A stretch of DNA of 64,000 nucleotides, taken from Candidatus Poribacteria bacterium. Lineage in GTDB: Bacteria; Poribacteria; WGA-4E; GCA-2687025. Location: contig OY762492.1 in assembly GCA_963665845.2 (NCBI GenBank), positions 2,400,001-2,464,000 of the forward strand, in the 5' to 3' direction. A program made the translations under genes and the position numbers. The notes under the pieces were generated by a model. That model saw only the letters and a program-made list of their open reading frames with translations, had not been told where the DNA came from and did no database searches. Of this stretch, positions 31,199 through 58,854 are shown one piece after another (the first letter of the stretch is position 1; every line of letters begins with the position of its first letter).

Positions 31199-32326
31199 TT
31201 ATCCGCCCTCCGCGTTTTCGTTTTCCTCTTCGGAGGAGCTGAATTTCATGGCGAGATAAATCCCTCCGAAAAGCAGAAGCAGGACGGCTCCCGCCCCAAT
31301 CATAAAGCGGCGCATCCGCGGGTTCATCCCGTTGTTGGCAGTATGCATATTCAGCGCCGAGATCAAAACGAACGGAATTTTATAGGTTAAAGGGGAGCCG
31401 AAGGAGTTCATCTGCCGACTGCCGGAGCTGTCAAAAAACAAAAGCTCCCCCGCCTCTTTATCGAATTGAACGGTCGGCGTCAGTTTGTCAAACTCTTTGA
31501 CGATCTCGATCAACTTGCCGCGCAGTTCCTCGGCGCGCTCCTCGTCCGACTTTCCCTTTAAAGACAGCTCCACATCCAACTTTGAAAGCTCATAGCCGAT
31601 ATCCTCAACCATGGAGGCGACCCCTCTCGGATACTTCAGCGGCGAGATCGAAGCGGAGGTTGACGTCAATCCCGACAAAAAGGGCGGGATCATTGATGTA
31701 CCTGACGAAGGCCCCCCATGAAAATGCCCGTGAATATGGCCGCTGAGAATCCGGAAATGCGTGTGTTGAAAGCTGCGCCAGTTGTTTTCAAGATGCGACA
31801 ATGCGGCGTTCAGATTGAGCGCAAACGGGTCGTCCTCAACCATATTGAATGCAAGCAGACTATTCAGCCGGTGAGCGAATGTGCCGCCCCCGCCGCTGCC
31901 GCTGCTTCCCGACGGCGTGATATGGTAATGGTAACACATCAGCGTTTGAGTTCGCTCGTTGTACTTGACGGAGGAGGCGCCGTCCGGCGTCAGATCATGG
32001 ATTTTGCGCATCTCTGTGAAATACAGCTCGCGGAGTATCGGCAGCCGCTCGTCAACAGGCGTCTTTTTCTTTTTCAACTGCTCGTTCCGAAGCAGGAGCT
32101 GGTCGGAGACGTTGATGACGTGCGCATGCATGTCTTTAAACATGACGGAGCTTGGGTTGCTGCGCATACGATGCTCGGTGTCCTGCATGATCTCTCGGAC
32201 GGCCGCTTCCAGTTCGAAGGTGAACTTTTCTGCGTCGGCGCGGAGCGGCGCAAGACAGAATGCCGCGGCGGTTAGGGCGAAGGTTAAGGCGGTTGACGGG
32301 GCGTATCGGCGCATCGGTTTCTCCAT
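31199..32326 (-). CDS. Helical-domain family, class I (signal peptide + two domains + C-terminal TM anchor)
   Basis: PLRADA cleavage site; FT.ELEAAV, ERLPILR.LY, YNER and ELSKLDVEL; hydrophobic C-terminal helix. Confidence 0.8.
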   Translation of the reverse strand: MEKPMRRYAPSTALTFALTAAAFCLAPLRADAEKFTFELEAAVREIMQDTEHRMRSNPSSVMFKDMHAHVINVSDQLLLRNEQLKKKKTPVDERLPILRELYFTEMRKIHDLTPDGASSVKYNERTQTLMCYHYHITPSGSSGSGGGGTFAHRLNSLLAFNMVEDDPFALNLNAALSHLENNWRSFQHTHFRILSGHIHGHFHGGPSSGTSMIPPFLSGLTSTSASISPLKYPRGVASMVEDIGYELSKLDVELSLKGKSDEERAEELRGKLIEIVKEFDKLTPTVQFDKEAGELLFFDSSGSRQMNSFGSPLTYKIPFVLISALNMHTANNGMNPRMRRFMIGAGAVLLLLFGGIYLAMKFSSSEEENENAEGG

Positions 32327-32327
32327 T

Positions 32328-33386
32328 TTAATTGCTTGCCGCGTTTTCGTTTTCCTCTTGGGTTGAATTGAATCTCATTGCGAGATAGACCCCTCCGACG
32401 AGGAGAAGTAGGACAGCTGCCGCCCCGATCATCAAGAGGCACATCCGCGAATCCCCCGACTTCGCAGAGGTCTGTATGTTCAGCGCCGATAACAACGCGA
32501 ACGGAATTTGATACGTTAAAGGGGCGCCGGCGGAATCCAGCTGCGGACTGCCGGCGTTGTCGTAAAAAGAAAGTTCCGCCGCCTCCTCATCGAATTGAAC
32601 GATCCGCGTCAGATTGTCAAACTCTTTGACGATCTCGATCATCTTGCCGCGCAGTTTCTCGACCCGCTCCTCGTCCGGCCGCCCCTTTAAAGACAGCTCC
32701 ACATCCAACTTTGAAAGCTCGTAGCGGATCTCCGCAACCATGGAGTCGACCCCGCTTCGATACTTCGGCGGCGAGGTCGGAGCTGGGGATGGCGGCAATT
32801 TTGGCAACATATGTTCGTGAAGATAGGAGCTGAGAAGCGCGGGGTTCGATTGTTGAAAACGGCGCCAGGATTCATCAAGGCGCGACAATGCGTCGTTCAG
32901 TTGGCGCGCAAACGGATCCGGCTCTATCTTATGGAATTCAAGCAGCCAGAAGAGTTTTTGAGCGATAGAGCCGCCGCTGTATCTTCCGGACGCGTCGAAC
33001 TCATAACGGGCAAACCGCAGCGATTGATTTCGCTCATTGTATTTCACGGAGGAGAATTTGTCCGGCTTCAGTTGATGGATTTTGCGCATCTCGGTGAGAT
33101 ACAGCTGGCGGAGTATCGGCAGCCGCTCCTTGACAGGGACATTTTTTATCTCAAACGCCTCGTTCAGACGCAGCAGCTGATCGCCGACGCCGGTCATGAG
33201 CTTATGCAGGTCTTTCGCCGCGGCGGAGCTGGGATAGCTGCGAATTCTCGCCTCGCCCTGTTGGGACATTTCTTGGACGGCCGCTTCCAGTTTGAGGGTG
33301 AAGTCTTCAGCGTCGGCGCGCAGCGGCAAGCACACAAACGCCAACGCAGCAAGAACAGCAATCAGCGGAGCGGTTCGGGTCGTCAT
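32328..33386 (-). CDS. Helical-domain family, class I
   Basis: Paralog of 31199-32326 with the same architecture; translationally coupled. Confidence 0.8.
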   Translation of the reverse strand: MTTRTAPLIAVLAALAFVCLPLRADAEDFTLKLEAAVQEMSQQGEARIRSYPSSAAAKDLHKLMTGVGDQLLRLNEAFEIKNVPVKERLPILRQLYLTEMRKIHQLKPDKFSSVKYNERNQSLRFARYEFDASGRYSGGSIAQKLFWLLEFHKIEPDPFARQLNDALSRLDESWRRFQQSNPALLSSYLHEHMLPKLPPSPAPTSPPKYRSGVDSMVAEIRYELSKLDVELSLKGRPDEERVEKLRGKMIEIVKEFDNLTRIVQFDEEAAELSFYDNAGSPQLDSAGAPLTYQIPFALLSALNIQTSAKSGDSRMCLLMIGAAAVLLLLVGGVYLAMRFNSTQEENENAASN

Positions 33387-34456
33387 TCAGTTTCTGCCTT
33401 GTGTTCGGCTTCTTTGGCGGAGTTGCGCTTCAATGACAAAAAGACGCCTGCCAAAACAAGCAGCAAGAGAGCCGCCCCGCCGCCCAGCAGCTGAAGACGA
33501 TTCGAGCTCGGCATCATCAGCGCCGCTGTCAGCTCGGGCGGGACTTCAAATACGATAGGGGAGCCGGCGCTGTCAAGGATCGGACCGCTTTCGTCGCGGA
33601 AAGGGATTTTCACCTCGCCGCCCTCAACCAGAACCTCCAGCCCGACATACTCCACTTTTTGGATCATCTCAAAGAAAAGGCGGCGCAGTTTCTTGGCGCG
33701 CTTCTTGAGCGGCGTTTTCCGCTCCGCCAGCTCCGCATCCAGTTTTGTCAGCTCATGTTCGATCTGCCACATGAGATGACCAAGGTCTCTACCCACAAAC
33801 CGCTCCATCGGCGTTGGAGGCGAAGGGTTCCATAACCCTGTCAGATTGGGGCGGACGATCTCCTTATCGAGAATATGGGAGACTTTGCCCCGAACAACTC
33901 GATTCGTGTATTCAAAACCCTTCCACTCATTGACGAGATCCCGCAATGCGATCGTAAGCTTGAACCCGGCTGAATCGACGGTCGTTCTCCCCTGTATCAA
34001 CAGCGAATCCAACCTCCATGCGAATCCGCCTTCGGGTCCGCTCCCGACGCTGCCCCCTCCGCCTGGAGAACCGCGATGGTAGAACGCCAGCGACTGCAAG
34101 CGCTCATTATACAGCGCTATCGAATTGCCGTCCGGCTCTAACTCATGAATTCGGCGCATCTGCTGAAAATACATCTGGCGCAGGATCGGTATGCGCTCTT
34201 CTTCAGGCATCTGTATCTTTTCCAGCTGTTCGTTTCGGAGCAGCAACAGGGAGCCAATCTCCGAGAGCAGACCGGCGAGGCTTTGCGCCATGACAGATTT
34301 TGGGTAGTCGTTGACAGGCTCATGCCCTTGTTGAGTCAACTGACGGACCGCCTCTTTCAGCTCGCGGGTGAAGGCGTCGTCGTCGGCGCGCAGCGGCAGA
34401 CACGCAAACGCCAGCGCAGCAAGAACAGCAATCGGCGGAGCGGTTCGGGTCGTCAT
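33383..34456 (-). CDS. Helical-domain family, class I
   Basis: Signal peptide near-identical to 32328-33386; C-terminal third near-identical to 34453-35520. Confidence 0.8.
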   Translation of the reverse strand: MTTRTAPPIAVLAALAFACLPLRADDDAFTRELKEAVRQLTQQGHEPVNDYPKSVMAQSLAGLLSEIGSLLLLRNEQLEKIQMPEEERIPILRQMYFQQMRRIHELEPDGNSIALYNERLQSLAFYHRGSPGGGGSVGSGPEGGFAWRLDSLLIQGRTTVDSAGFKLTIALRDLVNEWKGFEYTNRVVRGKVSHILDKEIVRPNLTGLWNPSPPTPMERFVGRDLGHLMWQIEHELTKLDAELAERKTPLKKRAKKLRRLFFEMIQKVEYVGLEVLVEGGEVKIPFRDESGPILDSAGSPIVFEVPPELTAALMMPSSNRLQLLGGGAALLLLVLAGVFLSLKRNSAKEAEHKAETE

Positions 34457-35520
34457 TCAGTTTCTGCCTTGTGTTCGGCTTCTTTGGCGGAGTTGCGCTT
34501 CATGACAAGAAAGAGGCCTGCCAAAACAAGCAGCAAGAGAGCCGCCGCTCCGCCCATCAGCAGCTGCAGACGCTTCGGGCTATTCTGTTTGGCGCTCGGC
34601 ATCATCAGCGCCGCCATCAGCTTGGGCGGAAATTCAAACGCGATAGGGGAGCCGGCGCTGTCAAGGATCGGGCCGCTTTCGTCGCGGAAGGGGATCTTCA
34701 CCGAGTCGCCCTCAACCTGAACCTCCAGCCCGACATACTCCACTTTTTGGATCATTTCAAAGAAAAGGCGGCGCAGTTTCTTGGCGCGCTCCTCGCGCGG
34801 CGCCTTCTGTTCCGCCAGCTCCGCATCCAGTTTTGTCAGCTCGTATTCGATCCTGTGCATGAGACTAATAAAGCGTCTATCCGTATACCGCTCCAGCATG
34901 GTAGGAGGCGAAGGGGTCAACCCCGTCGGGTTGGGGCGGACCATTTCCCTCACTGTAATATGACCGATTTCGCTGTGATGCTTGTAGGAAAAATCCATAA
35001 ACCACTTATGTAAGAGCTCCTGCAACCCGTCCGTAAGCTCGCCCGCGGCAGGGTCGTCGCCGATGCTCTCCTTGATCTTGAGCAGCGATTCCAACTTTGA
35101 CGCGAATGAGCCTCCTCCGCCTCCGCCTCCGCCTGTAGAACTGTAATAATAGAAGCCCAGCGACTGACTGCGCTCATTGTACTCCGCTCTCGAATTGCCG
35201 TCCGGCTCCATCTCATGGATTCGGCGCATCTGCTGGAGATACAGCCGGCGCAGGATCGGTATGCGCTCTTCGTTCGGCGTCTTTTGCGTTTCCATGTGTT
35301 CGTTCCGCAACAACAGGCGGGAGCCAATTTCCGAGAACAGATTGGCAAGGTTTTGCGCCATGACAGAGCTAGGGTTGCCTTTGGCAAGCCCCTGCCCGTG
35401 TTCAACCAGCTGATAGACCGCCTCTTCCAGCTCGCGGGTGAACGCGTCGTCGGCGCGCAGCGGCAGACACGCAAACGCCAGCGCGGCAAGAACGGCGGTT
35501 GTCATGGCGGCGCGTGTCAT
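34453..35520 (-). CDS. Helical-domain family, class I
   Basis: Start at ATG 35520 after AAAGGAG; poly-Gly loop YYYSST-G8. Confidence 0.8.
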   Translation of the reverse strand: MTRAAMTTAVLAALAFACLPLRADDAFTRELEEAVYQLVEHGQGLAKGNPSSVMAQNLANLFSEIGSRLLLRNEHMETQKTPNEERIPILRRLYLQQMRRIHEMEPDGNSRAEYNERSQSLGFYYYSSTGGGGGGGGSFASKLESLLKIKESIGDDPAAGELTDGLQELLHKWFMDFSYKHHSEIGHITVREMVRPNPTGLTPSPPTMLERYTDRRFISLMHRIEYELTKLDAELAEQKAPREERAKKLRRLFFEMIQKVEYVGLEVQVEGDSVKIPFRDESGPILDSAGSPIAFEFPPKLMAALMMPSAKQNSPKRLQLLMGGAAALLLLVLAGLFLVMKRNSAKEAEHKAETE

Positions 35521-35939
35521 GGCGGCTCCTTTCAACCTTCCCGCCATGAAGTATAAAACGCCGACGCGCCAACCGCAATATCTGACCGGCAGTACGCTCA
35601 TACGGTGATATTCGAGGCGCCGCGTCCGATTCCCCCTTGAATAGGGCGCGCCTCTGATTCCCCCCTTGAATAGGGCGCGCCTCTGATTCCCCCCTTGAAT
35701 AGGGCGCGCCTCTGATTCCCCCCTTGAAAAGGGGGGCTAGGGGGGTTTAAAGGACGGGCGCGGCGGCTGCAATGCCTTAAGATTCCCGCTTACGCGGGAA
35801 TGACGACGCGCAGAGCGTCGGCTTTTCCGCTGTTCATCGCGGCTCTTTCAATCGGCCTCTCCAGTTTATGCGGCGGTTTTGGGGCGGCTTCGCCTCTTTA
35901 TAAAGTAGAAGAGAGCCAGCCCGCATGCCGCAAATGCCG
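35114..35939. repeat. ~0.83 kb segmental duplication, copy 1 (copy 2 at 37152-37977)
   Basis: Near-identical sequence at an offset of 2038; begins at a (CCTCCG)n tract and includes 29-bp family B tandem repeats. Confidence 0.9.
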
Positions 35940-35947
35940 CATCGTTG

Positions 35948-36961
35948 TTAGGCGGATTGCCTGCGATTTCTTCTGGACGACCCGACCAGAAAAAACGCCA
36001 AGACCGCGACCGCAAACAACATCAAGGCGCCAAGATAATAGACGATGTCGTCGAACCTGGTCTCAAAGACGAGAAGCGTGTCATCAAGCAACCCGGCTAT
36101 CGGTCCCTCAGATGTGGACTTGCTAGTACCGCCGCTGAATCGCCTGACGCTGGAAATGCGGAAGCTGGAACTCGGACCTTGAGGGAAGAATTCAATATCG
36201 TCTTCAGAGCCGCCCTCGTAGACGGGTCCAAAATGGTTGAACCTCTTCATCCATTTTAGGTAAAGTTCGCGCAGTTCCTTCACGCGCTTTCGGTGCGGCG
36301 CGTTCTGTTGGCGCAATTCTTCGTCCAGACGGGTCAGTTCGTCCCTGATTTCAGAAAACCGCTTCAAAAGTTCGCTCGCAAACTTTGTGCCTTTATGCCG
36401 TTCCCGTTGGGCGATGTTTTGCCCGTCCTTCATGAAATCTCTGAGCGCCATTTTAAAGGCGCGGTTGAATGTGTCAGGATCGGTTCGCGCCGCTTCGCTG
36501 AAAAACGACATCATATTGAAGAGTTGAGCGAGCTTGCCGCTGAGGATGTAGGCGCGGCGGGAATCGGTAGAGCCGCCGGTTTCCCATATTTCCAGAGTAA
36601 AATACGATTCGCCGTACACCATATTGAAGCCGCCGGTCGGTTTCAGCTCATACAGCGGATTCATTTGCTCTCGGAACCGCTGGCGCAGCTTGTCAATGCG
36701 CTCGTTGTACGGAAGGTTTTGCGGTCGAAGCTGCGCGTCGTAAGCGGTCAACTCCGCCGCCGCTTTGGAGAGGATGTCCGCAATCTGTTGCGCCAACAGC
36801 GAGTCGGGAAGCTGATTGAGCAGCTTTTGCCGCTTTCCCATCAGCTCTTGGACGCCCGCTTGAATCTCCGCCGAGACGGGGTCGGCGTTCGCCGGCGCGG
36901 ACGCATGGAGAAGCGGCAAGCAAAAAATAAGAGCGGCGCTGAAATGGATGTTGAGGCGCAA
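35948..36961 (-). CDS. Helical-domain family, class I
   Basis: Signal peptide; DPVSAEIQAGVQEL, LP.S.LA, ERIDKLR and ELTRLDEELRQQ; C-terminal TM + RRNRR. Confidence 0.8.
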   Translation of the reverse strand: MRLNIHFSAALIFCLPLLHASAPANADPVSAEIQAGVQELMGKRQKLLNQLPDSLLAQQIADILSKAAAELTAYDAQLRPQNLPYNERIDKLRQRFREQMNPLYELKPTGGFNMVYGESYFTLEIWETGGSTDSRRAYILSGKLAQLFNMMSFFSEAARTDPDTFNRAFKMALRDFMKDGQNIAQRERHKGTKFASELLKRFSEIRDELTRLDEELRQQNAPHRKRVKELRELYLKWMKRFNHFGPVYEGGSEDDIEFFPQGPSSSFRISSVRRFSGGTSKSTSEGPIAGLLDDTLLVFETRFDDIVYYLGALMLFAVAVLAFFLVGSSRRNRRQSA

Positions 36962-36979
36962 TGGAGGCTCCTTTCTCCG

Positions 36980-37558
36980 TTAGGCGGATTGCCTGCGATT
37001 TCTTCTGGACGACCCGACCAGAAAAAACGCCAAAACCGCGAGCGCAAACAACATCAAGCCGATGAGAGGATAAATCACGGACTTAATCCGTTCTCTTTCC
37101 CAGGACTCCTTGACCAGGAGCGTCTTTTCAAGACTTCTTCCGATGCCTCCGCCTCCGCCTCCGCCTCCGCCTGTAGAACTGTAATAATAGAAGCCCAGCG
37201 ACTGACTGCGCTCATTGTACTCCGCTCTCGAATTGCCGTCCGGCTCCATCTCATGGATTCGGCGCATCTGCTGGAGATACAGCCGGCGCAGGATCGGTAT
37301 GCGCTCTTCGTTCGGCGTCTTTTGTGTTTCCATGTGTTCGTTCCGCAACAACAGGCGGGAGCCAATTTCCGAGAACAAATTGGCAAGGTTTTGCGCCATG
37401 ACAGAGCTAGGGTTGCCTTTGGCAAGCCCCTGCCCGTGTTCAACCAGCTGATAGACCGCCTCTTCCAGCTCGCGGGTGAACGCGTCGTCGGCGCGCAGCG
37501 GCAGACACGCAAACGCCAGCGCGGCAAGAACGGCGGTTGTCATGGCGGCGCGTGTCAT
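36980..37558 (-). CDS. Helical-domain family, chimeric single-domain class I member
   Basis: N-terminus identical to 34453-35520 up to the poly-Gly tract; C-terminal anchor nearly identical to 35948-36961. Confidence 0.75.
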   Translation of the reverse strand: MTRAAMTTAVLAALAFACLPLRADDAFTRELEEAVYQLVEHGQGLAKGNPSSVMAQNLANLFSEIGSRLLLRNEHMETQKTPNEERIPILRRLYLQQMRRIHEMEPDGNSRAEYNERSQSLGFYYYSSTGGGGGGGGGIGRSLEKTLLVKESWERERIKSVIYPLIGLMLFALAVLAFFLVGSSRRNRRQSA

Positions 37559-37977
37559 GGCGGCTCCTTTCAACCTTCCCGCCATGAAGTATAAAACGCC
37601 GACGCGCCAACCGCAATATCTGACCGGCAGTACGCTCATACGGTGATATTCGAGGCGCCGCGTCCGATTCCCCCTTGAATAGGGCGCGCCTCTGATTCCC
37701 CCCTTGAAAAGGGCGCGCCTCTGATTCCCCCCTTGAAAAGGGCGCGCCTCTGATTCCCCCCTTGAAAAGGGGGGCTAGGGGGGTTTAAAGGACGGGCGCG
37801 GCGGCTGCAATGCCTTAAGATTCCCGCTTACGCGGGAATGACGACGCGCAGAGCGTCGGCTTTTCCGCTGTTCATCGCGGCTCTTTCAATCGGCCTCTCC
37901 AGTTTATGCGGCGGTTTTGGGGCGGCTTCGCCTCTTTATAAAGTAGAAGAGAGCCAGCCCGCATACCGCAAACGCCG
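37152..37977. repeat. ~0.83 kb segmental duplication, copy 2
   Basis: Matches 35114-35939. Confidence 0.9.
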
Positions 37978-38944
37978 ACGCAACAGCGATCCAAAGGCGC
38001 CGCATTTTGTTCCGATGATTCCACATGTCGAGAACCCCAAGAATTTCCCCTGAAATCGTCCCGCCGCCGCGCGCATAACTTCCTGGAGCGGGAGAATGGG
38101 TGAACAGAAGCTTGAAGCCGCCCGCGTCGTATTCCACACCGTAATTCTCGACAGGTTTAAAATCGTTGAACTGCTTCATCCATTTTTGAAACCGACCGCG
38201 CAGCTTGGAGACGCGCTTGTCGTATGAGGCGTTTTGCCGGCGCAGTTCGCCGTCCAGTTTGAGCAGATCGGCGCAGATTTCGGAGATGCGTTCGTTGAAC
38301 CGCTCCGCAAACGTCCTATCCGCCTTGTCTTTGTAGATGTTTCGATACGATTCTTTCAAATCGTCAAGCGCGTAATTCAAGGCGCGGGTGAAGGCGTTCG
38401 GGTCGGTTCGCAGCTCCTGTTCGACAAACGAATGCAGATCGAAAAGCCGCTCAAGATGGTACCCTAAGCCGAACTCAAAGAGGCTGATGCTGGCGCTCGC
38501 CGATAAATCGCCTTTAGAAGAAGCGCGGGAAACGGAGCTGGATTCGTAAATTTTCATGACCTGATGCGCTTCATCGTATCGCACTTTCGCCCCGTTGATC
38601 GGCTTCAGATCATGCAGCTGCCGAATCTGTTCGAGGTAACGCTTGCGAAGCATGTCGATGCTCTCCTCGCGGGAAATGTTCTGCGCGAGGAGCTGCGCGT
38701 CGTATTCGGTCAACGCTGTTGCCGTATCGGAGAGGATGCCGGCAATCTGTTTCGCCAGTTCAGATTCGGGAAGCGTATCGAGAATGTTTTTATGAGCATT
38801 CATGAGATCGTCGACGCCTGCTTGGAGCTGCGTCGAAACGGAGTCTAGATTCGTTTGCGCCGTATTTTCCTGCGCAGACGCATGGAGAAGCGGCGCGGCG
38901 GTCAAAACAAGCAGGACAACGGTTGCTGAGGCGCGGCGGAACAT
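37904..38944 (-). CDS. Helical-domain family, class I
   Basis: Start at ATG 38944 after AAGGAG; DSVSTQLQAGV, LPESELA, RTDPNAFTRAL and KLDGELRRQ; C-terminal TM. Confidence 0.8.
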   Translation of the reverse strand: MFRRASATVVLLVLTAAPLLHASAQENTAQTNLDSVSTQLQAGVDDLMNAHKNILDTLPESELAKQIAGILSDTATALTEYDAQLLAQNISREESIDMLRKRYLEQIRQLHDLKPINGAKVRYDEAHQVMKIYESSSVSRASSKGDLSASASISLFEFGLGYHLERLFDLHSFVEQELRTDPNAFTRALNYALDDLKESYRNIYKDKADRTFAERFNERISEICADLLKLDGELRRQNASYDKRVSKLRGRFQKWMKQFNDFKPVENYGVEYDAGGFKLLFTHSPAPGSYARGGGTISGEILGVLDMWNHRNKMRRLWIAVASAFAVCGLALFYFIKRRSRPKTAA

Positions 38945-38957
38945 GGGTCTCTCCTTT

Positions 38958-39593
38958 TCATTGCCCAATTTCGAGCAGCGTATAGATTTTTGGCGTGACG
39001 CCGCCTAAATAGGTCAAGACTTCGTCGGCTGTTTCTGACAAATTCGGGTCTCTCTCCATCTCGTCAAATCTCTTTCCTGTTTCCATAAACCGCTCGCGCA
39101 GTTTGGCGATACGCTCTTGGCGCGAAAGGTTTTGTTGACGCGATTCCGCATCGATACGGGCAAGATCGGCGCCTAGATCGGCGAACATGTCCGCGACCGC
39201 CGCCGCGAATGCGGAACCAGGAAACTTGTCGTTGAGATCGCGCGCGAGCTGGTCAAGCTCTTGGACCGCCTCTTGAAGCTGAACCGCGAACTCGTCTAGG
39301 GCGTCCGCTTCAGGGGCGTCGGATTCGCCGCCGCTGTCGGACGGGGCGGGGGACTCTTCCGCCTCGGCGTCATCAGAGACGGGAGCCTCTTCCTGGCGCT
39401 CTGGGGCGGAAGTTTCGTCGGGCGCTCGCGTCGGCGTTTCAGCAGGCTGCCGCTCAATGGGCGGCGACTGTTCCTCTATAGAGAGGCCGTTTTCAACCTC
39501 GTCTCCAGAACCGCCTGCCATGACGAAGTAGAGAACAACGAAGGCGGCTAAAACAGCAGCCGCTAAGACGGCGAGAAGGACATTCAGGCGCAT
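38958..39593 (-). CDS. Helical-domain family, class II (N-terminal TM + acidic linker + one domain)
   Basis: MRLNVLLAVLAAAVLAAFVVLYF; ENGLSIEEQSP; DEFAVQLQEAV; ERIAKLR; PKIYTLL. Confidence 0.8.
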   Translation of the reverse strand: MRLNVLLAVLAAAVLAAFVVLYFVMAGGSGDEVENGLSIEEQSPPIERQPAETPTRAPDETSAPERQEEAPVSDDAEAEESPAPSDSGGESDAPEADALDEFAVQLQEAVQELDQLARDLNDKFPGSAFAAAVADMFADLGADLARIDAESRQQNLSRQERIAKLRERFMETGKRFDEMERDPNLSETADEVLTYLGGVTPKIYTLLEIGQ

Positions 39594-39614
39594 TCTGTTT
39601 TCCTTTCTCGTCGG

Positions 39615-40271
39615 TTATAAACCGAGCAGCTGCGTCAGTTTTTGCGGCAGATTCGAGTTGATGTATTGCTCAACCGCTTTCTCGTCTTCGCTCACCGGAT
39701 CAATTCCCGCCATCTTCGACTCCATTTCTCTTTCAAATCGCGTAACGTATTCCTCACCCCGCTGTTTCAGCTTGGCGATGCGCGCTTCCCTTGTCAGGCT
39801 TTGACTGCTCAATTCAGCGTCGTACCGCATCAGCATGGAACCAAAATCGGTGTAAAAATCAGCAATGACTTCGGCAAACTTGGAATTTGGAAACCTGTCG
39901 AGCATCGTTTGCACAATATCGTTCATCTCATCGACTCCCTCTTGAAGCTCAATCGTGAACGGGTCTTGCGCGGCGGTTTGCGGAGCGTCGGGCTGCGCCG
40001 CGCCGGCGCTCTCCTCAATTTCAGACGGGGCGGCAGATTCTTCAGCCTCTTCAGAAACGACAGCCTCCTCTTGACGCTCCGGCTCTGGAGTTTTGTCGGC
40101 GGTTTGCGTCGGCTCCTCTGCAGGTTTCTGTTCAATGATGGGCGACTGCTCTTCTATGGAGAGGCCGTTTTCAACCTCGTCGCTGGAGCCGCCGGACATG
40201 ACAAAGTAAAGAACGACGAAGGCGGCTAATACAGCCGCCGCTAATACAGCGAGAAGGACATTCATGCGCAT
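39615..40271 (-). CDS. Helical-domain family, class II
   Basis: Same architecture; DPFTIELQEGV; PQKLTQLLG. Confidence 0.8.
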   Translation of the reverse strand: MRMNVLLAVLAAAVLAAFVVLYFVMSGGSSDEVENGLSIEEQSPIIEQKPAEEPTQTADKTPEPERQEEAVVSEEAEESAAPSEIEESAGAAQPDAPQTAAQDPFTIELQEGVDEMNDIVQTMLDRFPNSKFAEVIADFYTDFGSMLMRYDAELSSQSLTREARIAKLKQRGEEYVTRFEREMESKMAGIDPVSEDEKAVEQYINSNLPQKLTQLLGL

Positions 40272-40312
40272 TGCGTTTTCCTTTCATGCGCGGTTGAGTT
40301 GAGGCGCGGCGG

Positions 40313-40975
40313 TCACCAATCGAGGCCAAGCAGCGTTGTGAGCTTCGTCGGCATGTTCGCCTCCCCCCAACTCTCTAATTCCTCCATGGACGCCGCCAGC
40401 GCCGGATCGTCCAGATCAAAATCTGGCTCTTCGACTTGATTGCTGATCTGTTCGGCGCGCTCTTTCAGTTTCGCAATCCGCTCCTCTCTTGTCAAGTTTT
40501 GGCTCAGCAGCTGCTCGTCGTAGCGGGTCAGCTCGTCCGAGAGGCGGGCGACCACATTTGCAACAAACATGCTCATCGGATTGTTTGGAAATCGCGACCG
40601 CAAGGTGTCGGCAAATTCGGCAAACTCTTCGAGCGCGTCCTGAAGTTCGAGGGTGAGCGGGTCTTTCGGAGCGGCTTGCGGCGCGTCGGGCTGCGCCGCG
40701 CCGGCGCTTTCGGTGTCGTCGGACGAGGCGGTCGACTCTTCAGAGGCGGATTCTTCAAAAACGGGCGTTTCCTCTTGCCGCGTCGGCGCGGAGGTTTCAT
40801 CAGCGGTTTGCGTTGGCTCTTCGGCAGGTTTCTGTTCAATGATGGGCGACTGCTCTTCTACGGAGATGCCGTTTTCAGCCCCGCCGTTTGAGTCGCCGGT
40901 CATGACGAAGTAAAGAACGACGAAGGCTGCCAAGACTGCAGCCGCTAAGACAGCGAGAATGACGTTCAGACGCAT
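40313..40975 (-). CDS. Helical-domain family, class II
   Basis: DPLTLELQDAL; EERIAKLK; PTKLTTLLG. Confidence 0.8.
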   Translation of the reverse strand: MRLNVILAVLAAAVLAAFVVLYFVMTGDSNGGAENGISVEEQSPIIEQKPAEEPTQTADETSAPTRQEETPVFEESASEESTASSDDTESAGAAQPDAPQAAPKDPLTLELQDALEEFAEFADTLRSRFPNNPMSMFVANVVARLSDELTRYDEQLLSQNLTREERIAKLKERAEQISNQVEEPDFDLDDPALAASMEELESWGEANMPTKLTTLLGLDW

Positions 40976-40990
40976 GGCGGTTTCCTTTCT

Positions 40991-41656
40991 TTACTGGAGA
41001 GGCAATCCGAGAAGGGTGAACAGTTTGCGGGGCTGGTTGTTTTCAAAAAATTGATCGTACGCCTCCTTTTCTTCAGGGTCCATTTCTGCCATGATCGCGT
41101 TAACCTGCGGCGAGAGCCGGTTTGATGTCTCGTTGAGACGGGCGGCAAGTTTGGCGGCGCGTTCCGCGCGCTCCAAGTTTTGACCTTGCAGCTCCTCATT
41201 GTATTCCGCCACGCTGTCGACAACTTCGTTCATCAGCGCGGCGATGTCGGCTGCTCCCGGACCTGGATACGAGTCAACAAAACGCTGGGTCATCTCCTTA
41301 AACTCGCTGACAGCGTCCTGAAGTTCGAGGGTGAACGGATCTGGCGCGTCGGCTTGCGGGGCGTCGGGCTGCGCCGCGCCGGCGCTTTCGCTGTCGTCGG
41401 ACGGCGCGGCGGACTCGCTGTCGTTGACAGACTCATCCGAGACGGGCGTTTCCTCTTCCGCCTCAGGCGTCGGCGCTTCGTCGGCGGTTTGCTCTGGCGC
41501 ATCGTCAGCTTTCTGTTCAATGCGCGGCGATTGATCCTCTACAGCGAGGCCGTTTTCAGCCCCGTCGTTTGAACCGCCGGCGATGACGAAGTAAAGAACG
41601 GCGAAGGCGGTCAAGACAACCGCCGCCAAAACTGCTAACATAATGTTCAGACGCAT
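40991..41656 (-). CDS. Helical-domain family, class II
   Basis: Start at ATG 41656; domain closely matches the C-terminus of the sigma fusion 55700-56959. Confidence 0.8.
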   Translation of the reverse strand: MRLNIMLAVLAAVVLTAFAVLYFVIAGGSNDGAENGLAVEDQSPRIEQKADDAPEQTADEAPTPEAEEETPVSDESVNDSESAAPSDDSESAGAAQPDAPQADAPDPFTLELQDAVSEFKEMTQRFVDSYPGPGAADIAALMNEVVDSVAEYNEELQGQNLERAERAAKLAARLNETSNRLSPQVNAIMAEMDPEEKEAYDQFFENNQPRKLFTLLGLPLQ

Positions 41657-41788
41657 GCGTTTCTCCAATCGGTTTTGCTTACCGCATACACTATAACGTA
41701 GCGTCGGGAACGGTGTCAACCTTAATTTTGTCAAAGTCCGATTTTAACTCTGGACTTCGGAAGGGCGGATAGAGAAAGGATTTTAAAA

Positions 41789-53795: not shown

Positions 53796-53878
53796 CGGAG
53801 CGGGAAACGCAAACGGGCTTGGATAGTGGGGAGTGGATAGTGGTTAGTGGACAGGGTTTAGGCGGGCGGGTTGAAGTT

Positions 53879-53990
53879 GGTTTGAACTAGGATTTTCAGG
53901 ATTTGAGGATGCGGGCATGTTGAGGGCGGAGAGTCGGTTTCAACAATCCTCCTGGCAATCTTTTCAATCATGCAAATCTTAGTTCAGACA
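53879..53990. repeat. Repeat family C copy
   Basis: TTTGAACTAGGATT...AATCTTAGTTCAGAC. Confidence 0.7.
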
Positions 53991-54213
53991 CCAGACGGTT
54001 TCGGGTTCGCCTCTGGATTCCCGCTTGCGCGGGAATGACAGCCGCCCGATTACAGCGTAGGGCGCGGGCTTCTAGACTCCCCCTTTAAAAGGAGGCTGGG
54101 GGTTTTACGGCAGGCGGCGCAGACGCTTTATGGTCAAAATACGGAATTTGGAAAAATAGCGCTAAAATCAAAGCGGGAACTGCCACAAGAGAGCTGAACG
54201 AAAGGAGCGCCGA

Positions 54214-55590
54214 ATGAACGACCGACCGCTAAGCGACTTCGACGCGACGGTTCTTGGGCAGATGGAGCATATCCGCGCCATCGGCAGAAAACGGCTGCGC
54301 AACCAGAACGAACTGGACGACTTCGTCCAAGAGACGGCGGCGCGCGTCTATGCGAACCGCGATCAGTTGCGCGACCCAGCCAAGCTGAAGCAGTGGATCG
54401 CCGGCATCGCGCGGAACACCGCGAACGAGCTGAACCGCGCCGGCTTCCGTAGACGCGAAGAACCGCTGCCGGAAGACGATGGCGAACTGCCGACCATGCC
54501 CGATCCGCATGAAGAACTGGAACGGGCGGAGCGGAACGACCAGATACGTCAAGCGATGAACAGGCTGAACCCGATCGACCGCGACCTGCTGCAGGGGCGG
54601 TATATGGAGGAGGAGTCGTACGCCGATCTTCAGGAGCGGCATGGGCTGTCCTACTCGGCGGTTGGGTTTCGGCTGCATCGCGCGAAGAGCCGTCTTCGGA
54701 AGTTGCTGACCGGAATGAAGGTCGCGTTGGCATTGGCGCTCGCCAACATGAAACAAACCGCATTTGGAGGAATGCTCATCATGACCAAAACGACCAAGAT
54801 CGTTCTCGCAACAGCGTCGGCTCTCATTCTCGCCCTGCTGGGCGGGTATCTCTGGATCGAATACGGCGGCGCGTCGGACGATTCAGATCAGGGGCTGACG
54901 GTTGAGGAACAGTCGCCGATCATCCATGCCCGCGGCGCCGACGACCGCGCCGATTCTTCAGCCGAAACGGAAACGGCAGGCGGAACCGAAACCTTGCTGA
55001 CGGCTGAAGCTCCCTCAACCGGCGGAACAGGCGAGACGGCAGACGCGCCCAACGCCGGCGAGGCGGCGGCCGTTGACGCGCCCGACGCCTTTTCAACCGA
55101 ATTCCAGGAAGGCGTTGAAGAAATGAGCGACTTTGCGAAAAAGATGGTGGCGGAGTTTCCCGAATTCGAGGGCTTGACAGAAGCGGCGGCGGCAATGGGG
55201 GATGTTCTCCTGAAACGCGAAGCGGAATTGCGGCAACAAGGAATGTCCGCTGCCGAACGCAAAACGCAGCTCCGCGCAACATATCAGGCAGAGTCTAAGA
55301 AGATGTCAGAGATCATCGTAGGAGAAATGACCTTCGGAATGGCTCCCGATTTCTCGTCAGTTGATCCCTCGTCCAAGTCATTCGATCCAACCTCGCTGCT
55401 CCAAATGACAGGTCGGTTTCGCGCCTTAACTCAGTTCATCGTTGAAAATCAGCCCAAAAAGTTGGAAACTGTTCTTGGACTTCCAACAGGGAACAATCCG
55501 TCAATGGATGAGATCAATGACATCTTCAACGGTCTCGATTCCTCCATCATTGACGCCGCCGCGCCGTCAATGGAGCCGGAGGACCGGTAA
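54214..55590 (+). CDS. ECF sigma factor fused via a TM helix to the helical domain (class III)
   Basis: Region 2 DDFVQET...WIAGIARN; region 4 LNPIDR...SYADL...AVGFRLHRAK.RLR; TM; acidic linker; DAFSTEFQEGV...PKKLETVLG. Confidence 0.88.
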   Translation: MNDRPLSDFDATVLGQMEHIRAIGRKRLRNQNELDDFVQETAARVYANRDQLRDPAKLKQWIAGIARNTANELNRAGFRRREEPLPEDDGELPTMPDPHEELERAERNDQIRQAMNRLNPIDRDLLQGRYMEEESYADLQERHGLSYSAVGFRLHRAKSRLRKLLTGMKVALALALANMKQTAFGGMLIMTKTTKIVLATASALILALLGGYLWIEYGGASDDSDQGLTVEEQSPIIHARGADDRADSSAETETAGGTETLLTAEAPSTGGTGETADAPNAGEAAAVDAPDAFSTEFQEGVEEMSDFAKKMVAEFPEFEGLTEAAAAMGDVLLKREAELRQQGMSAAERKTQLRATYQAESKKMSEIIVGEMTFGMAPDFSSVDPSSKSFDPTSLLQMTGRFRALTQFIVENQPKKLETVLGLPTGNNPSMDEINDIFNGLDSSIIDAAAPSMEPEDR

Positions 55591-55699
55591 GAGTTCGTTG
55601 TTCGGCAAATTTTGTTGACGCCGCGTCAAGCCGCATGCAAATAGCGCTAAAAACGCTGAGGGCGCTGCCACAACTGAACCGAACGAAAGGAGCGCTGAA

Positions 55700-56959
55700 A
55701 TGCATGACCGACCGCTAAGCGACTTCGACGCGACGGTTCTAGGGCAGATGGAGCATATACGCGCCATCGGCAAAAATCGGCTGCGCAACCAGAATGAGCT
55801 GGACGACTTTGTCCAAGAGACGGTCGCGCGCGCCTATGCGAACCGCGATCAGCTGCGCGACCCCGCCAAGATAAAGCAGTGGATCGCCGGCATCGCGCGA
55901 AACACGGCGAACGAGATGAACCGCGCGGCGTACCGCAGACGCGAAGAGCCGCTTCCAGACGAAGACCAGCTGCAGGACGACACGCGCGATCCGCATGAAG
56001 AACTGGAACGGGCGGAGCGGAACGAGCAGATACGCGCCGCGATGAACAGGCTGAACCCGATCGACCGCGACCTGCTGCAGGGGCGGTATATGGAGGAGGA
56101 GTCGTATGCCGATCTTCAGGAGCGGCATGGGCTTTCCTACTCGGCGGTCGGGTTTCGGCTGCATCGCGCAAAGCGCCGTCTTCGGAAGTTGTTGACCGGA
56201 ATGAAGGTCGCGTTGGCATTGGCGCTCGCCAACATGAAACGAACAGCATTTGGAGGAGTGCTTATCATGACCAAAACGACCAAGATCGTTCTCGGCGTCG
56301 CGTCCGCCATCATTCTCGCCCTGCTGGGCGGGTACCTGTGGGTCGAATACGGCGCACCATCGGACGACTCGAAGCCTGGGCTGACGGTTGAAGAGCGCGG
56401 GCTGACGGTTGAAGATCAGTCGCCGATCTTCAAGCAGAAATCTGCTGAAACGCCAAAGCAAACCGCCGAAGAAACCTCTGCGCCGGAGCGGCAAGAGAAA
56501 ACGCGCGTTTTTGAAGATTCGATCGCTTCTGAAAAGTCTGCCGCCCCGTCTGACGACAGCGAAAGCGTCGGCGCAACGCAGCCCGACGCCCTGCAAACCG
56601 CTCCGCAAGACCCGTTCACCGTCGAACTTCAGGAGGGGGTCCGCGAGTTTAAGGAGGTGTACCAGCGTCTTGTTGAATTGCATCCAGGTCCGAGGGCAAC
56701 TTACATCGCAGCTCTGCATAATGAAGTTGTCGACAACATGGCGGAATACAATGAGGAGCTGCAAGATCAAAACTTGGAGAGCGCGGAACGCGCCGCCAGA
56801 CTTGCCGCCCGCCTCATCGAGACCTCGCAACGGCTGGAGCCGCAGTACACCGCGATGCTGGCCAAAATACACCCTGAAGAAAAGAAAACATACGCTCAAT
56901 TCATGAAAAACAACACGCCCCGAAAACTGTTCGTTTTTCTCGGGATGCTGCCAGAATAA
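55700..56959 (+). CDS. ECF sigma factor fused via a TM helix to the helical domain (class III), paralog 2
   Basis: Sigma part nearly identical to 54214; different C-terminal domain variant (DPFTVELQEGV...PRKLFVFLG). Confidence 0.88.
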   Translation: MHDRPLSDFDATVLGQMEHIRAIGKNRLRNQNELDDFVQETVARAYANRDQLRDPAKIKQWIAGIARNTANEMNRAAYRRREEPLPDEDQLQDDTRDPHEELERAERNEQIRAAMNRLNPIDRDLLQGRYMEEESYADLQERHGLSYSAVGFRLHRAKRRLRKLLTGMKVALALALANMKRTAFGGVLIMTKTTKIVLGVASAIILALLGGYLWVEYGAPSDDSKPGLTVEERGLTVEDQSPIFKQKSAETPKQTAEETSAPERQEKTRVFEDSIASEKSAAPSDDSESVGATQPDALQTAPQDPFTVELQEGVREFKEVYQRLVELHPGPRATYIAALHNEVVDNMAEYNEELQDQNLESAERAARLAARLIETSQRLEPQYTAMLAKIHPEEKKTYAQFMKNNTPRKLFVFLGMLPE

Positions 56960-57107
56960 ATCTGTTTTCAGCGCCGCGGGCGGGGGACCTCAAACGGCGT
57001 TCCCTGCCCACTGCGCCGCTGAAATCTGGCAGGTTCTTTTTTTGGCGGCATCGTGTATCATCAGGGCGTCAACCTCTATGAGAAACGACGGGAAGGCGTT
57101 CTGAATC

Positions 57108-57929
57108 ATGACGAAAACGACCAAGATCGTTCTTGCGGTTTCTGCCGCTCTGTTGATAGCGATGCTGGGCGCGTATCTTTGGATCGAATACGGCGGCGGG
57201 TCGGACGACTCGGATCAAGGGCTGACGGTTGAGGAGCAGTCGCTGGTCATCCATGACAGCGGCGCAGAGGACAGCGCCGATTCTTCAACCGAAACGGAAC
57301 CGTCCGACGACTCTGAAGCCGCGCAAACTTCCGAAGCGGAGCAGGCTGTCGACAACGGCGGCGCGGAAAATACAGCGGCAGCGTCTCCCGACGCCTCCGC
57401 CGACGCGCCTGACGATTTTTCAATCCAGCTCCAAGAGGGCATCCAGGAAATCGTCGATTACGTTGCAAAGGTGAAAGCGCAAATTCCTAAAATGGATTTG
57501 TTCGAGGAGACAACGCTCGCTTCCGTGGAGGGTCTTGATGAGCTGGACGCGCAATTGCGGCGGCAGGGGGTAGCGCTGGAAGAACGGAGAGAAAAACTGC
57601 TGACGAAGTATCTGTATAACTCCATGGATAACACAGGTTCCATGATAGTGGGGTTTGCCTCCATGACGCAGTTAGAAGGGGGCTTTAACACAGAGCGCAT
57701 GGCAGAGTTGCCCCTGATTCTCCGTAGCATAGGGGAGCCTCCTAAAAAGCTGACCAATCTGCTGATGGGCGATATGACCGAGGCGCAGCTGATACAGAAA
57801 ATGATGACAATCCCTGAATATCGGGCGAAGGTGGAGGCGGCGATGTCGGAGATGAGAGAGAGCTTGCAAGATCTCGATCTAGAGAGTCTTGATCTATCGG
57901 GGCCAATTGAAGATCCGTTGCGCCGCTGA
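57108..57929 (+). CDS. Helical-domain family, class II (sigma-less, MTKTTKIV start)
   Basis: Begins at the MTKTTKIVL segment that is internal in the sigma fusions; DDFSIQLQEGI; PKKLTNLL. Confidence 0.82.
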   Translation: MTKTTKIVLAVSAALLIAMLGAYLWIEYGGGSDDSDQGLTVEEQSLVIHDSGAEDSADSSTETEPSDDSEAAQTSEAEQAVDNGGAENTAAASPDASADAPDDFSIQLQEGIQEIVDYVAKVKAQIPKMDLFEETTLASVEGLDELDAQLRRQGVALEERREKLLTKYLYNSMDNTGSMIVGFASMTQLEGGFNTERMAELPLILRSIGEPPKKLTNLLMGDMTEAQLIQKMMTIPEYRAKVEAAMSEMRESLQDLDLESLDLSGPIEDPLRR

Positions 57930-58014
57930 AATCGGGCAGGTTCATTTTTCAGCGGCATCGTGTATCATCAGGGCGTCAACCTCTATGAGAAACGACGGGA
58001 AGGCGTTCTGAATC

Positions 58015-58845
58015 ATGACGAAAACGACCAAGATCGTTCTTGCGGTATCTGCCGCTCTGTTGATAGCGATGCTGGGCGCGTATCTTTGGATCGAATACGG
58101 CGGTTCATCGGACGACTCGGATCAAGGGCTGACGGTTGAGGAGCAGTCGCCGGTCATCCATGACAGCGGCGCAGACGACAGCGCCGATTCTTCAGCCGAA
58201 ACGGAACCGCCCGACGACTCCGAAGCCGCGCAAACTTCCGAAGCGGAGCAGGCGGACGACAACGGCGGCGCGGAAAATACAGCGGCAGCGTCTCCCGACG
58301 CCTCCGCCTCCGCCGACGCGCCTGACGAATTTTCAACCCAGCTCCAAGAGGGCATACAGGAAATCGTCGATTACGCGGCAAAGATGAAGGCGCAAGTTCC
58401 TGAAATGGCTTCGTTCGGGGACACGTCTCTCGCTTCTGTGGAGGGTCTTGCTGAGCTGGACGCGCAATTGCGGCGGCAGGGAACGGCGCTGGAAGCGCGG
58501 AGAGAGCAGCTGCTCATGAAGTACATCAATAACACCATGGACAACTTAGGTTCCATGACGACGGGGGCTGCCTCCATGGCGCTGTCAGGAGGGGCATTGA
58601 CCCCTGAGCGCATAATGGAGTTGTCCCAAAGCTTCGAGAGCATGGAGCCTCCTAAAAAGCTGCATACGCTGCTGCGCGGCGATATGACGGAGGAGGAGCT
58701 GACGCAGAAAATGATGGCAACGCCTGAATATAAGGCGAAGGTGGAGGCGGCGATGTCGGAGATGAGAGAGAGCTTGCAAGGTCTTGATCTAGAGGGTCTC
58801 AATCTGGACGATCTTGAACTGCCGGAGCTGCATGAGGATCGATAA
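58015..58845 (+). CDS. Helical-domain family, class II (sigma-less), tandem paralog
   Basis: Recent duplicate of 57108, including ~90 bp of upstream sequence; central domain diverged. Confidence 0.82.
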   Translation: MTKTTKIVLAVSAALLIAMLGAYLWIEYGGSSDDSDQGLTVEEQSPVIHDSGADDSADSSAETEPPDDSEAAQTSEAEQADDNGGAENTAAASPDASASADAPDEFSTQLQEGIQEIVDYAAKMKAQVPEMASFGDTSLASVEGLAELDAQLRRQGTALEARREQLLMKYINNTMDNLGSMTTGAASMALSGGALTPERIMELSQSFESMEPPKKLHTLLRGDMTEEELTQKMMATPEYKAKVEAAMSEMRESLQGLDLEGLNLDDLELPELHEDR

Positions 58846-58854
58846 AAGCCGTTT

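Follow-up and report, generated by a model that had tools for sequence, protein, structure and literature searches.

Here we describe the history of sig2, one of two neighbouring genes in a 64,000-nucleotide window (C1:2400001-2464000) of a poribacterial genome (G000; 3.98 Mb, 59.7% G+C) that are predicted to encode membrane-tethered sigma factors of the extracytoplasmic function (ECF) type. sig2 is a true mosaic of two neighbouring gene families. On balance we think it probable that the mosaic is old, formed by recombination at a juxtamembrane motif at about the split of the two sequenced species of the genus, and that its sigma half has been kept uniform by gene conversion, with no ongoing cassette switching. 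The sigma locus is syntenic in a sister genome of the same genus (G001; its genes are marked with a prime: sig1', sig2', sig3', tmA', tmB'). Together the two loci show how one-protein sensors evolve: the output (sigma) module appears to be kept uniform by gene conversion, and the sensor module appears to be exchanged among fused and free genes and to evolve fast.

The features on which the argument rests are given below in window coordinates, with the evidence in brackets.

54214..55590, + strand: sig1, 458 amino acids; ECF sigma factor, membrane helix, motif, linker and a helical domain of the 57108/58015-related kind (open reading frame (ORF), Pfam, TIGR02937).
55700..56959, + strand: sig2, 419 amino acids; mosaic gene (ORF; protein and DNA comparison).
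55700..56194, + strand: sigma-2 and sigma-4 module of sig2, residues 1-165, sig1-like (Pfam; AlphaFold2 (AF2); 91% DNA identity to sig1).
56279..56350, + strand: predicted membrane helix of sig2, residues 194-217, of the sigma-locus type (AF2 helix; hydrophobic stretch in the sequence).
56378..56419, + strand: tandem duplication of the juxtamembrane motif, 21 nucleotides (GLTVEER / GLTVEDQ) (repeat family D7, spacing 21).
56394..56432, no strand: recombination breakpoint interval of sig2 (ends of DNA homology; maximum chi-square).
56426..56605, + strand: acidic disordered linker of sig2, array type (predicted local distance difference test (pLDDT) below 35; DNA identity to the array).
56606..56956, + strand: outer helical-bundle domain of the sig2/40991 type (AF2 of the domain alone; domain tree).
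57108..58845, + strand: sigma-less paralogues 57108-57929 and 58015-58845, a tandem duplicate pair (77% protein identity).
40991..41656, - strand: array gene whose linker and domain are the nearest to those of sig2 in G000 (protein and DNA comparison; synonymous divergence (dS)).
31199..41719, - strand: array of 11 paralogous genes for helical-domain membrane proteins (ORFs, repeat families, promoter, ribosome-binding sites).

The plus strand of the window carries sig1, sig2 and then the two shorter sigma-less genes, which are 87% identical in DNA between 57012-57895 and 57919-58805. The top of the array lies 14 kb from the sigma locus and consists of four short genes (40991-41656, 40313-40975, 39615-40271 and 38958-39593) separated by gaps of 15-41 nucleotides. 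Seven longer relatives continue the array down to 31199. The array and the sigma locus are inverted relative to each other. In the whole of G000 the fusion family comprises 11 sigma fusions, plus the sigma-less paralogues.

A preliminary description made from the letters of the window had reported that sig1 and sig2 are almost identical through the sigma and membrane parts and then diverge, and this is what the comparison gives. DNA identity is 88% over 54154-54908 and 55639-56394, that is, from 60 nucleotides upstream of the start to the first GLTVEE. Within this tract the sigma modules share 91.0% of their DNA and 88.8% of their protein sequence, and the hydrophobic membrane stretch of sig2 is common to sig1, 57108 and 58015. 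Past the motif the homology collapses, the match to sig1 ending at 56394-56396. The C-terminal part of sig2 matches array gene 40991 instead, as had also been noticed: residues 196-416 are 55% identical to it over 221 amino acids (E 6e-78), and 56408-56943 is 78% identical to 41542-41007 over 537 nucleotides. For the helical domain alone the protein identity is 64.7%. The linker (56408-56650) is 81% identical over 243 nucleotides to 40861-40622 in gene 40313-40975. sig1 reaches 27-30% protein identity to the array genes. Its C-terminal part is 44% identical to 58015 and 36% to 57108, and its DNA just after the membrane helix (54778-54975) is 83% identical to 57105-57302, which bears out the reported likeness of its linker start to those of 57108 and 58015.

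The transition between the two halves of sig2 is sharp and falls on the motif. In a triplet test of sig2, sig1 and gene 40991 (283 informative sites) the maximum chi-square of 162 was reached by none of 2000 permutations. The breakpoint lies just past ...EDQSPIF, after residue 244. To its left 55 sites are sig1-like and 6 are 40991-like; to its right the counts are 20 and 202. A second test used a codon alignment of the quartet sig1, sig2, sig1' and sig2' with 244 informative sites. Over alignment nucleotides 1-540, the sigma module, 18 sites group the genes within genomes, none by orthology and 1 crosswise; after nucleotide 721, 215 sites group them by orthology and 2 otherwise. The quartet breakpoint at nucleotides 677-738 is again the motif (chi-square 195, reached by 0/2000 permutations). 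The proposal that recombination took place at the conserved GL.VE(E/D)QSP linker is thus upheld by both tests.

The duplicated junction noticed earlier in the sig2 linker is real, and its nature can be corrected. It is a 21-nucleotide tandem duplication, GLTVEERGLTVEDQSP, with copies at 56378-56398 and 56399-56419. Both copies are written in the codons of the sigma locus (GGGCTGACGGTTGA...) and neither in those of the array (GGCCTCGCTGTAGA...), so it is the sigma-side motif that was duplicated. An origin of one motif copy from each parent is ruled out at the codon level. Array-type sequence starts only after ...QSP. The duplication is present in 5/6 sig2-type proteins, sig2 included, and is missing from P0002.

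In G001 the order of the locus is sig1', sig2', sig3', tmA', tmB' and a CHASE2 histidine kinase, the last as in G000. sig2' is 87% identical to sig2 over all 419 amino acids, with the same domain and a diverged form of the duplicated motif. sig3' is a third fusion, whose sigma module has diverged and which carries a different array-type domain, tmA' is a sigma-less gene with a domain of the sig2/40991 type, and tmB' is the orthologue of 58015. G000 has neither sig3' nor tmA' at the sigma locus and carries 57108 there instead, so that gene content changes by gain and loss. The short array genes number six in G001 and four in G000.

A protein search with sig2 gave 59 matches at E <= 1e-5 among 7998 candidates scored, and 26 of the 59 were examined in detail. 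Among these 26 the sig2-type pairing occurs in P0001-P0005, where P0005 is sig2' itself and P0001-P0004 are 87-97% identical to sig2 over 93-100% of the query. A near-identical sigma module is joined to a sig3-type domain in P0006, to a 40313-type domain in P0007, P0008 and P0025, and to a 57108/58015-type domain in P0009, P0010, P0014, P0016/17 and P0020. The near-constant sigma module is therefore found on at least five domain types (sig1, sig2/40991, sig3, 40313 and 58015) among the relatives found. Three of these types (sig2/40991, 40313 and 58015) occur both fused to sigma and sigma-less, which means that transfers, or gains and losses of sigma, have happened several times in the genus.

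Trees of the two halves disagree, as the preliminary description had anticipated. The pool for the trees was 78 distinct sequences (the 59 matches less 4 duplicates, plus 23 genes of G000 and G001). Kept were 47 with a D.F..ELQ-like start of the outer domain; the 31 dropped have other or unrecognised C-terminal parts. The sigma tree used the 30 of the 47 with a full sigma module, leaving out the N-truncated P0025 and the sigma-less rows. In the domain tree the sig2 rows form a clade of 6 (support 100) within the sig2/40991/tmA type of 10 rows (support 99), and within both the 40313 and the 58015 type fused genes stand among sigma-less ones. In the sigma tree a single tight clade (support 98) unites 19 modules on which five domain types occur. 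Domain type does not order this clade: 15 changes of domain label are needed where the minimum is 9. Forcing the sig2 rows together on the sigma tree is rejected by the approximately unbiased (AU) test (p 0.007), as is forcing the 58015-type rows together (p 1e-5); a forced clade of sig1 rows (p 0.052) or of sig3 rows (p 0.15) is not rejected.

Much of the uniformity of the sigma modules is due to gene conversion. The species dS, taken from three pairs of flanking orthologues, is 0.26-0.31, and the sigma modules of orthologues differ by 0.24-0.29. Within G001 the dS of the sigma module is 0.062 between sig1' and sig2' and 0.071 between sig1' and a copy on another contig (C2). Set against the species value, these figures mean that the sigma modules of G001 were homogenised inside that genome after the species split. 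The module of sig3' has stayed unconverted at 78% DNA identity to the others. P0012 shows a partial conversion tract: in alignment columns 1-63 it follows sig1 at 12/15 positions that differ, and beyond them it follows sig3 at 45/48. P0006 is nearly fully converted (sig1-like at 12/15 and then at 34/48). Paralogues closer to each other than to their orthologues, within a tract, are the mark of concerted evolution, and they are found in G001 and in the relatives. The tract ends are sharp, and the pattern fits the concept of prokaryotic concerted evolution by gene conversion set out in PMC6053082. Our case differs in that only one module is homogenised, and the sensor half is strictly orthologous and fast (dN/dS 0.5-0.73 against 0.18-0.29).

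Gene conversion alone probably does not account for the outer half of sig2. Its linker and domain have a dS of 0.41 to gene 40991, 0.31 to the G001 orthologue of 40991 and 0.37 to tmA'. Between sig1 and sig2 the dS of linker and domain is not computable, the domain types being saturated against each other. The dS of 0.31-0.41 to sigma-less genes means that this domain type moved between fused and sigma-less contexts fairly recently. Traced back, the two halves of sig2 meet their nearest paralogues at similar times, near the species dS (0.255 for the sigma module and 0.31-0.41 for the outer part), as is expected of a chimera formed about then. Most likely, from these sequence comparisons, a domain transfer into sig2 took place besides conversion. 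The outer parts evolve at a dN/dS of 0.30-0.73, mostly above 0.5, and closely related sigma modules at 0.18-0.29.

As we reconstruct it, the founding event was most likely a recombination at the juxtamembrane motif around the split of the two sequenced species of the genus. The near-identity of the sigma halves of sig2 and sig1 would then have been upheld, as is likely, by gene conversion, whose tracts appear to halt where DNA homology ends, just past the motif. The fusion family and its sigma-less paralogues would diversify by unequal crossing-over and gene conversion among paralogues.

Several observations weigh against this account. In G000 itself the sigma modules of sig1 and sig2 have a dS of 0.255 and are no closer than orthologues; conversion is seen in G001 and in the proteins of other assemblies. 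The segments hold only about 115-155 synonymous sites each, which puts errors of roughly 0.02-0.05 on all these dS values. The linker and domain of sig2 differ between G000 and G001 (56426-56956 against 6460-7004 of the G001 locus) by a dS of just 0.069, far below the species value. This may reflect a later exchange between lineages, in which case the system is more dynamic than the word old suggests; recent exchange between lineages and unequal selection are both conceivable. The outer part of sig1, for its part, is unusually different between the species (dS 0.44, dN 0.26; 50-84% DNA identity in 90-nucleotide windows). Finally, the founding event could have run in either direction, with a new domain placed on a copy of sig1 or with the sigma part of an older fusion overwritten.

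If the overwriting was all that happened, sig2 would be an old fusion with a 40991-type domain of its own, which looks chimeric only through conversion of its sigma and membrane part by sig1. The three states of conversion in sig3' (none), P0012 (partial) and P0006 (almost full) fit this explanation, and the quartet test agrees with it. We nevertheless hold it to be unlikely. It leaves the linker and domain of sig2 at about species divergence from sigma-less genes (dS 0.31-0.41) while domain types are otherwise saturated, and the 40313 and 58015 types likewise stand in fused and sigma-less contexts.

The opposite explanation is active exchange, in which the array serves as a reservoir and domains are repeatedly recombined onto a constant sigma module within populations. 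In silent-cassette systems (pilE/pilS; the orphan modules of polymorphic toxins) a constant N-terminal module is combined with variable C-terminal modules, and related copies lie nearby. The preliminary description had drawn this parallel, and in its outline it is apt: there is a constant N-terminal module, there are variable C-terminal modules, and there is a nearby array of related copies, inverted and 14 kb away. The breakpoint at a conserved motif, the at least five domain types on one sigma module, the unexpected likeness of the sig2 domain between species (dS 0.069) and a 99%-identical segmental duplication within the array, which makes a chimeric gene, all point the same way. The idea of domains swapped onto a constant sigma module survives to this extent, but the constancy of that module owes much to gene conversion.

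The closer likeness to cassette systems is not supported. The array genes are complete, separately translated cistrons of the expressed type behind a promoter-like site, and by these sequence features would not be silent or partial copies: each of the four genes with an N-terminal helix has an ATG with GGAG or GAAAGGAA 6-8 nucleotides upstream, and a sigma-70-like promoter, TTGACA-18-TATAGT with 11/12 matches at 41719..41690, is conserved in G001. Gene 40991 is no recent donor, given 78% DNA identity and a dS of 0.41, and a tblastn search of all of G000 found no copy closer than this to the outer part of sig2. The motif itself is only about 70% identical over some 26 nucleotides between the two loci. 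No invertase, integrase or other site-specific recombinase is among the 12 ORFs scanned around and between the loci. One junction occurs in 4/4 sequencing runs, and neither an alternative junction nor any other joint was found among these runs (one study, at most 3 samples, assembled contigs only, which drop rare variants). Across the lineages with sig2-type proteins the junction appears fixed. The preliminary description had held that one and the same pairing in all relatives would speak against exchange; that of sig2 is indeed kept in G001 and in four further clusters (P0001-P0004), but other lineages carry other fusions (P0006-P0010). Taken together these findings make active exchange quite improbable.

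A false join in a metagenome-assembled genome, prompted by the repeated sigma modules of a repeat-rich locus inside which short-read contigs do break, is hardly credible. The same junction recurs in G001 and, on different contigs, in 4 further protein clusters; the contig that carries the window is 3.95 Mb long; and an 810-nucleotide contig (56265-57074) spans the membrane helix, the junction and the domain with 0 differences in 4/4 runs. The sig2 junction is not an assembly artefact.

Pfam recognises in sig2 only Sigma70_r2 (residues 20-75) and Sigma70_r4_2 (109-161), and in sig1 only the same two families. Against a cut-off of 42.9, TIGR02937 (sigma70-ECF) scores 70.6 bits in sig2 and 73 bits in sig1. 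With sigma-2 and sigma-4, and without sigma-1 or sigma-3, sig2 belongs to the ECF (group 4) sigma factors. No finer NCBIfam model reaches its cut-off, and no Pfam or NCBIfam family covers the outer domain or the short array and sigma-less proteins.

The AF2 model of sig2, run with an alignment of 41 fusions, has sigma helices at residues 8-81 and 98-165 (pLDDT about 90) with a disordered linker at 82-96. A short hydrophobic stretch prolongs the last sigma-4 helix to residue 184. Next come a helix at 194-217, disorder over 218-300 and a confident bundle at 305-413. The domain modelled alone reaches a pLDDT of 94 and a predicted template-modelling score (pTM) of 0.85, with helices at 7-29, 33-59, 63-90 and 94-107. 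As modelled, the sigma factor, one membrane helix and a presumed outer part lie in one chain. The sigma-less paralogues begin with a Lys-rich end that is followed by the membrane helix. A scaffold of 'LHRAK..., hydrophobic helix, [FW]GG, Met, membrane helix' is present in all 11 fusions of G000 and in other families of Poribacteria. Conservation of the motif residues L235, T236, Q240 and P242 is 90% or more among the 41 fusions, whose overall identity falls as low as 25%, so the LT.EEQSP motif is probably functional, for example as a processing site. The motif is at the same time the stretch with which DNA homology ends.

From sequence and model we predict that proteins of the sig1/sig2 type are ECF sigma sensors tethered to the membrane; their helical bundle belongs to no known family. 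In the predicted mechanism the sigma factor would be held at the inner membrane and the outer bundle would sense a signal. Cuts near the motif and, by a site-2 protease, inside the membrane helix would then free the sigma factor, by analogy with IutY. G000 has three Peptidase_M50 (site-2 protease) genes, which count for little since the family occurs in 14/14 control genomes. Two points speak against this functional part of our interpretation: the membrane helix of sig2 is modelled with a pLDDT of only 51-69, and no anti-sigma domain is recognised by Pfam or NCBIfam. sig2 has no cysteine and hence no zinc-finger anti-sigma motif.

The outer domain has few relatives. Its family has 38 representatives at E <= 0.001 among 1.84 billion proteins, and when 10 of its clusters were checked for names, 2 were labelled Poribacteria, 1 only 'hypothetical protein', and 7 bore none. 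A Foldseek search of the Protein Data Bank (PDB) gave 0 matches at E <= 0.001. No hit of VIA-align (wide) reached Z 8, the best being BAR domains (Z 7.8) and the McpS sensor domain (Z 7.0), values that any helical bundle may be expected to reach. Searching PDB sequences with a profile returned nothing meaningful (best, an engineered protein at E 7e-4). Prediction of a complex of two copies of the domain gave no answer (score 0.02 against a mark of 0.42). Solved structures offered no specific relative of the domain.

Sigma factors that carry a membrane helix and an outer domain are a known class, of which few members have been studied. IutY of Pseudomonas putida, a sigma/anti-sigma hybrid of ECF243, has its sigma factor freed by Prc and RseP, as far as the portions of PMC5411451 and PMC8999054 drawn on here describe it. 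Like IutY, so described, sig2 combines a cytosolic ECF sigma factor, one membrane segment and an outer domain in one polypeptide, with proteolytic release predicted. Unlike IutY, it has no FecR-type anti-sigma or other Pfam family beyond sigma, but an acidic linker and a family-less helical bundle, and it belongs to a large paralogous family with sigma-less copies. ECF48, ECF52 and ECF53 of Actinobacteria (for example SCO4117) have one or two C-terminal membrane helices and a long extracytoplasmic extension, and their proteolytic activation has been proposed (PMC8999054, same portions). They share with sig2 an ECF sigma factor fused at its C terminus to a membrane and an extracytoplasmic part. 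According to that account they have a zinc-finger anti-sigma domain whereas sig2 has no cysteine, and both the phylum and the outer domains differ. There are 19 ECF groups with C-terminal extensions in PMC7826278, where Poribacteria go unmentioned in the excerpts of the main text. No paper on such membrane-tethered sigma factors in Poribacteria was found in the literature searched. New here are the documented history of modular recombination and the family-less sensor domain, on a known plan of ECF sigma factor, membrane helix and sensor.

Each fusion gene may have a second product. The candidate signals in the window are the following.

56252..56269, + strand: internal Shine-Dalgarno-like GGAGGA (codons of Gly185-Gly186) and the conserved ATG of Met190 in sig2; in sig1 at 54766-54783 (codon comparison).

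The Gly-Gly pair that precedes the membrane helix is encoded by GGA GGN (that is, GGAGG) in 16/16 fusion genes of G000 and G001 and in 7/7 class-level relatives, with the conserved ATG 7-13 nucleotides downstream, mostly 10. Other conserved Gly codons of the same 16 genes are never GGA, and genome-wide GGA is the first codon in 11.5% of 7125 Gly-Gly pairs. It is precisely at the Met corresponding to Met190 that the sigma-less genes begin. From this codon pattern we predict a second, sigma-less membrane-domain product from each fusion gene. The internal GGAGG and ATG explain how sigma-less genes can arise from fusions by deletion of the 5' part. Two products per gene, if confirmed, would change the view of how such sensors are regulated. 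A further suggestion, which we put forward as speculative and rather unlikely, is a repertoire of paired receptors. The fusion would be the signalling form and the product of the internal start a sigma-less decoy or partner, and fast-evolving sensor cassettes (dN/dS 0.5-0.7) would be traded between sigma-fused and sigma-less genes and even between lineages. Such a repertoire, if true, would retune what the cell of a sponge symbiont listens to.

Upstream of the genes further shared elements are found.

55639..55652, + strand, and 54154-54167 before sig1: conserved promoter-like element AAATAGCGCTAAAA with a TAAAA(T) -10-like end (direct repeat family D8).
57012-57107 and 57919-58014, also upstream of tmA' and tmB' in G001: upstream block of the sigma-less genes (sequence).

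An element similar to the first precedes 15/16 sigma-fusion genes of G000 and G001, as judged by eye. The genome has 15 sites with the strict pattern AAA(T)AGCG[CG]TAAAA. Of these, 7 lie about 45-55 nucleotides before sigma-fusion starts; besides the two in the window, the element is at C1 1717390, 1723692, 1725475, 2182629 and 3729921. Another copy, at C1:2489869(-), precedes an unrelated small gene. A sigma-70 promoter scan of 53800-59000 gave 0 sites. An autoregulated promoter of the ECF type (GGAAC...CGT) was considered and dropped, the fusion genes sharing the AAA.GCGCTAAAA(T) element instead. Upstream of the sigma-less genes of the sigma locus both species have another conserved block, CGTGTATCATCAG.GCGTCAACCT.TATGAGA, which may be a promoter or leader.

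The array itself is prone to recombination. Two 300-nucleotide segments, 35111-35410 and 37149-37448, are 99% identical within the duplicated 35111-35808 and 37149-37846. Array gene 36980-37639 is a chimera of its neighbours: the 5' part is the same as in 34453-35601, and the 3' end matches the one in 35948-36961 at 91% identity. A unit of 29 nucleotides (about CCCCCTTGAATAGGGCGCGCCTCTGATTC) is repeated head to tail at 35603-35762 and 37641-37800, as four overlapping 73-nucleotide copies at 29-nucleotide spacing, and these tracts lie just upstream (on the minus strand) of two array genes.

Between the array and the sigma locus lies an AAA_21 ATPase gene (45750-46901) beside a DUF4276 gene (45091-45753), both on the minus strand, a pair of the kind seen in defence-type modules, and an IS1595-family transposase gene (47237-48199) adjoins it. 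An invertase-driven shufflon between the inverted loci was considered and rejected: the 12 ORFs scanned hold no recombinase, and there is only this transposase. Synteny between G000 and G001 begins at about position 54142 of the window and the left flanks differ, which places the sigma locus at a rearrangement point. Elsewhere in G000 a second cluster (C1:1716033-1726880) has five sigma fusions with the same kind of mosaic. Its genes 1717466 and 1718783 are nearly identical in their sigma parts and unrelated in their outer parts, and one outer part is common to 1717466, 1723748 and 1725552.

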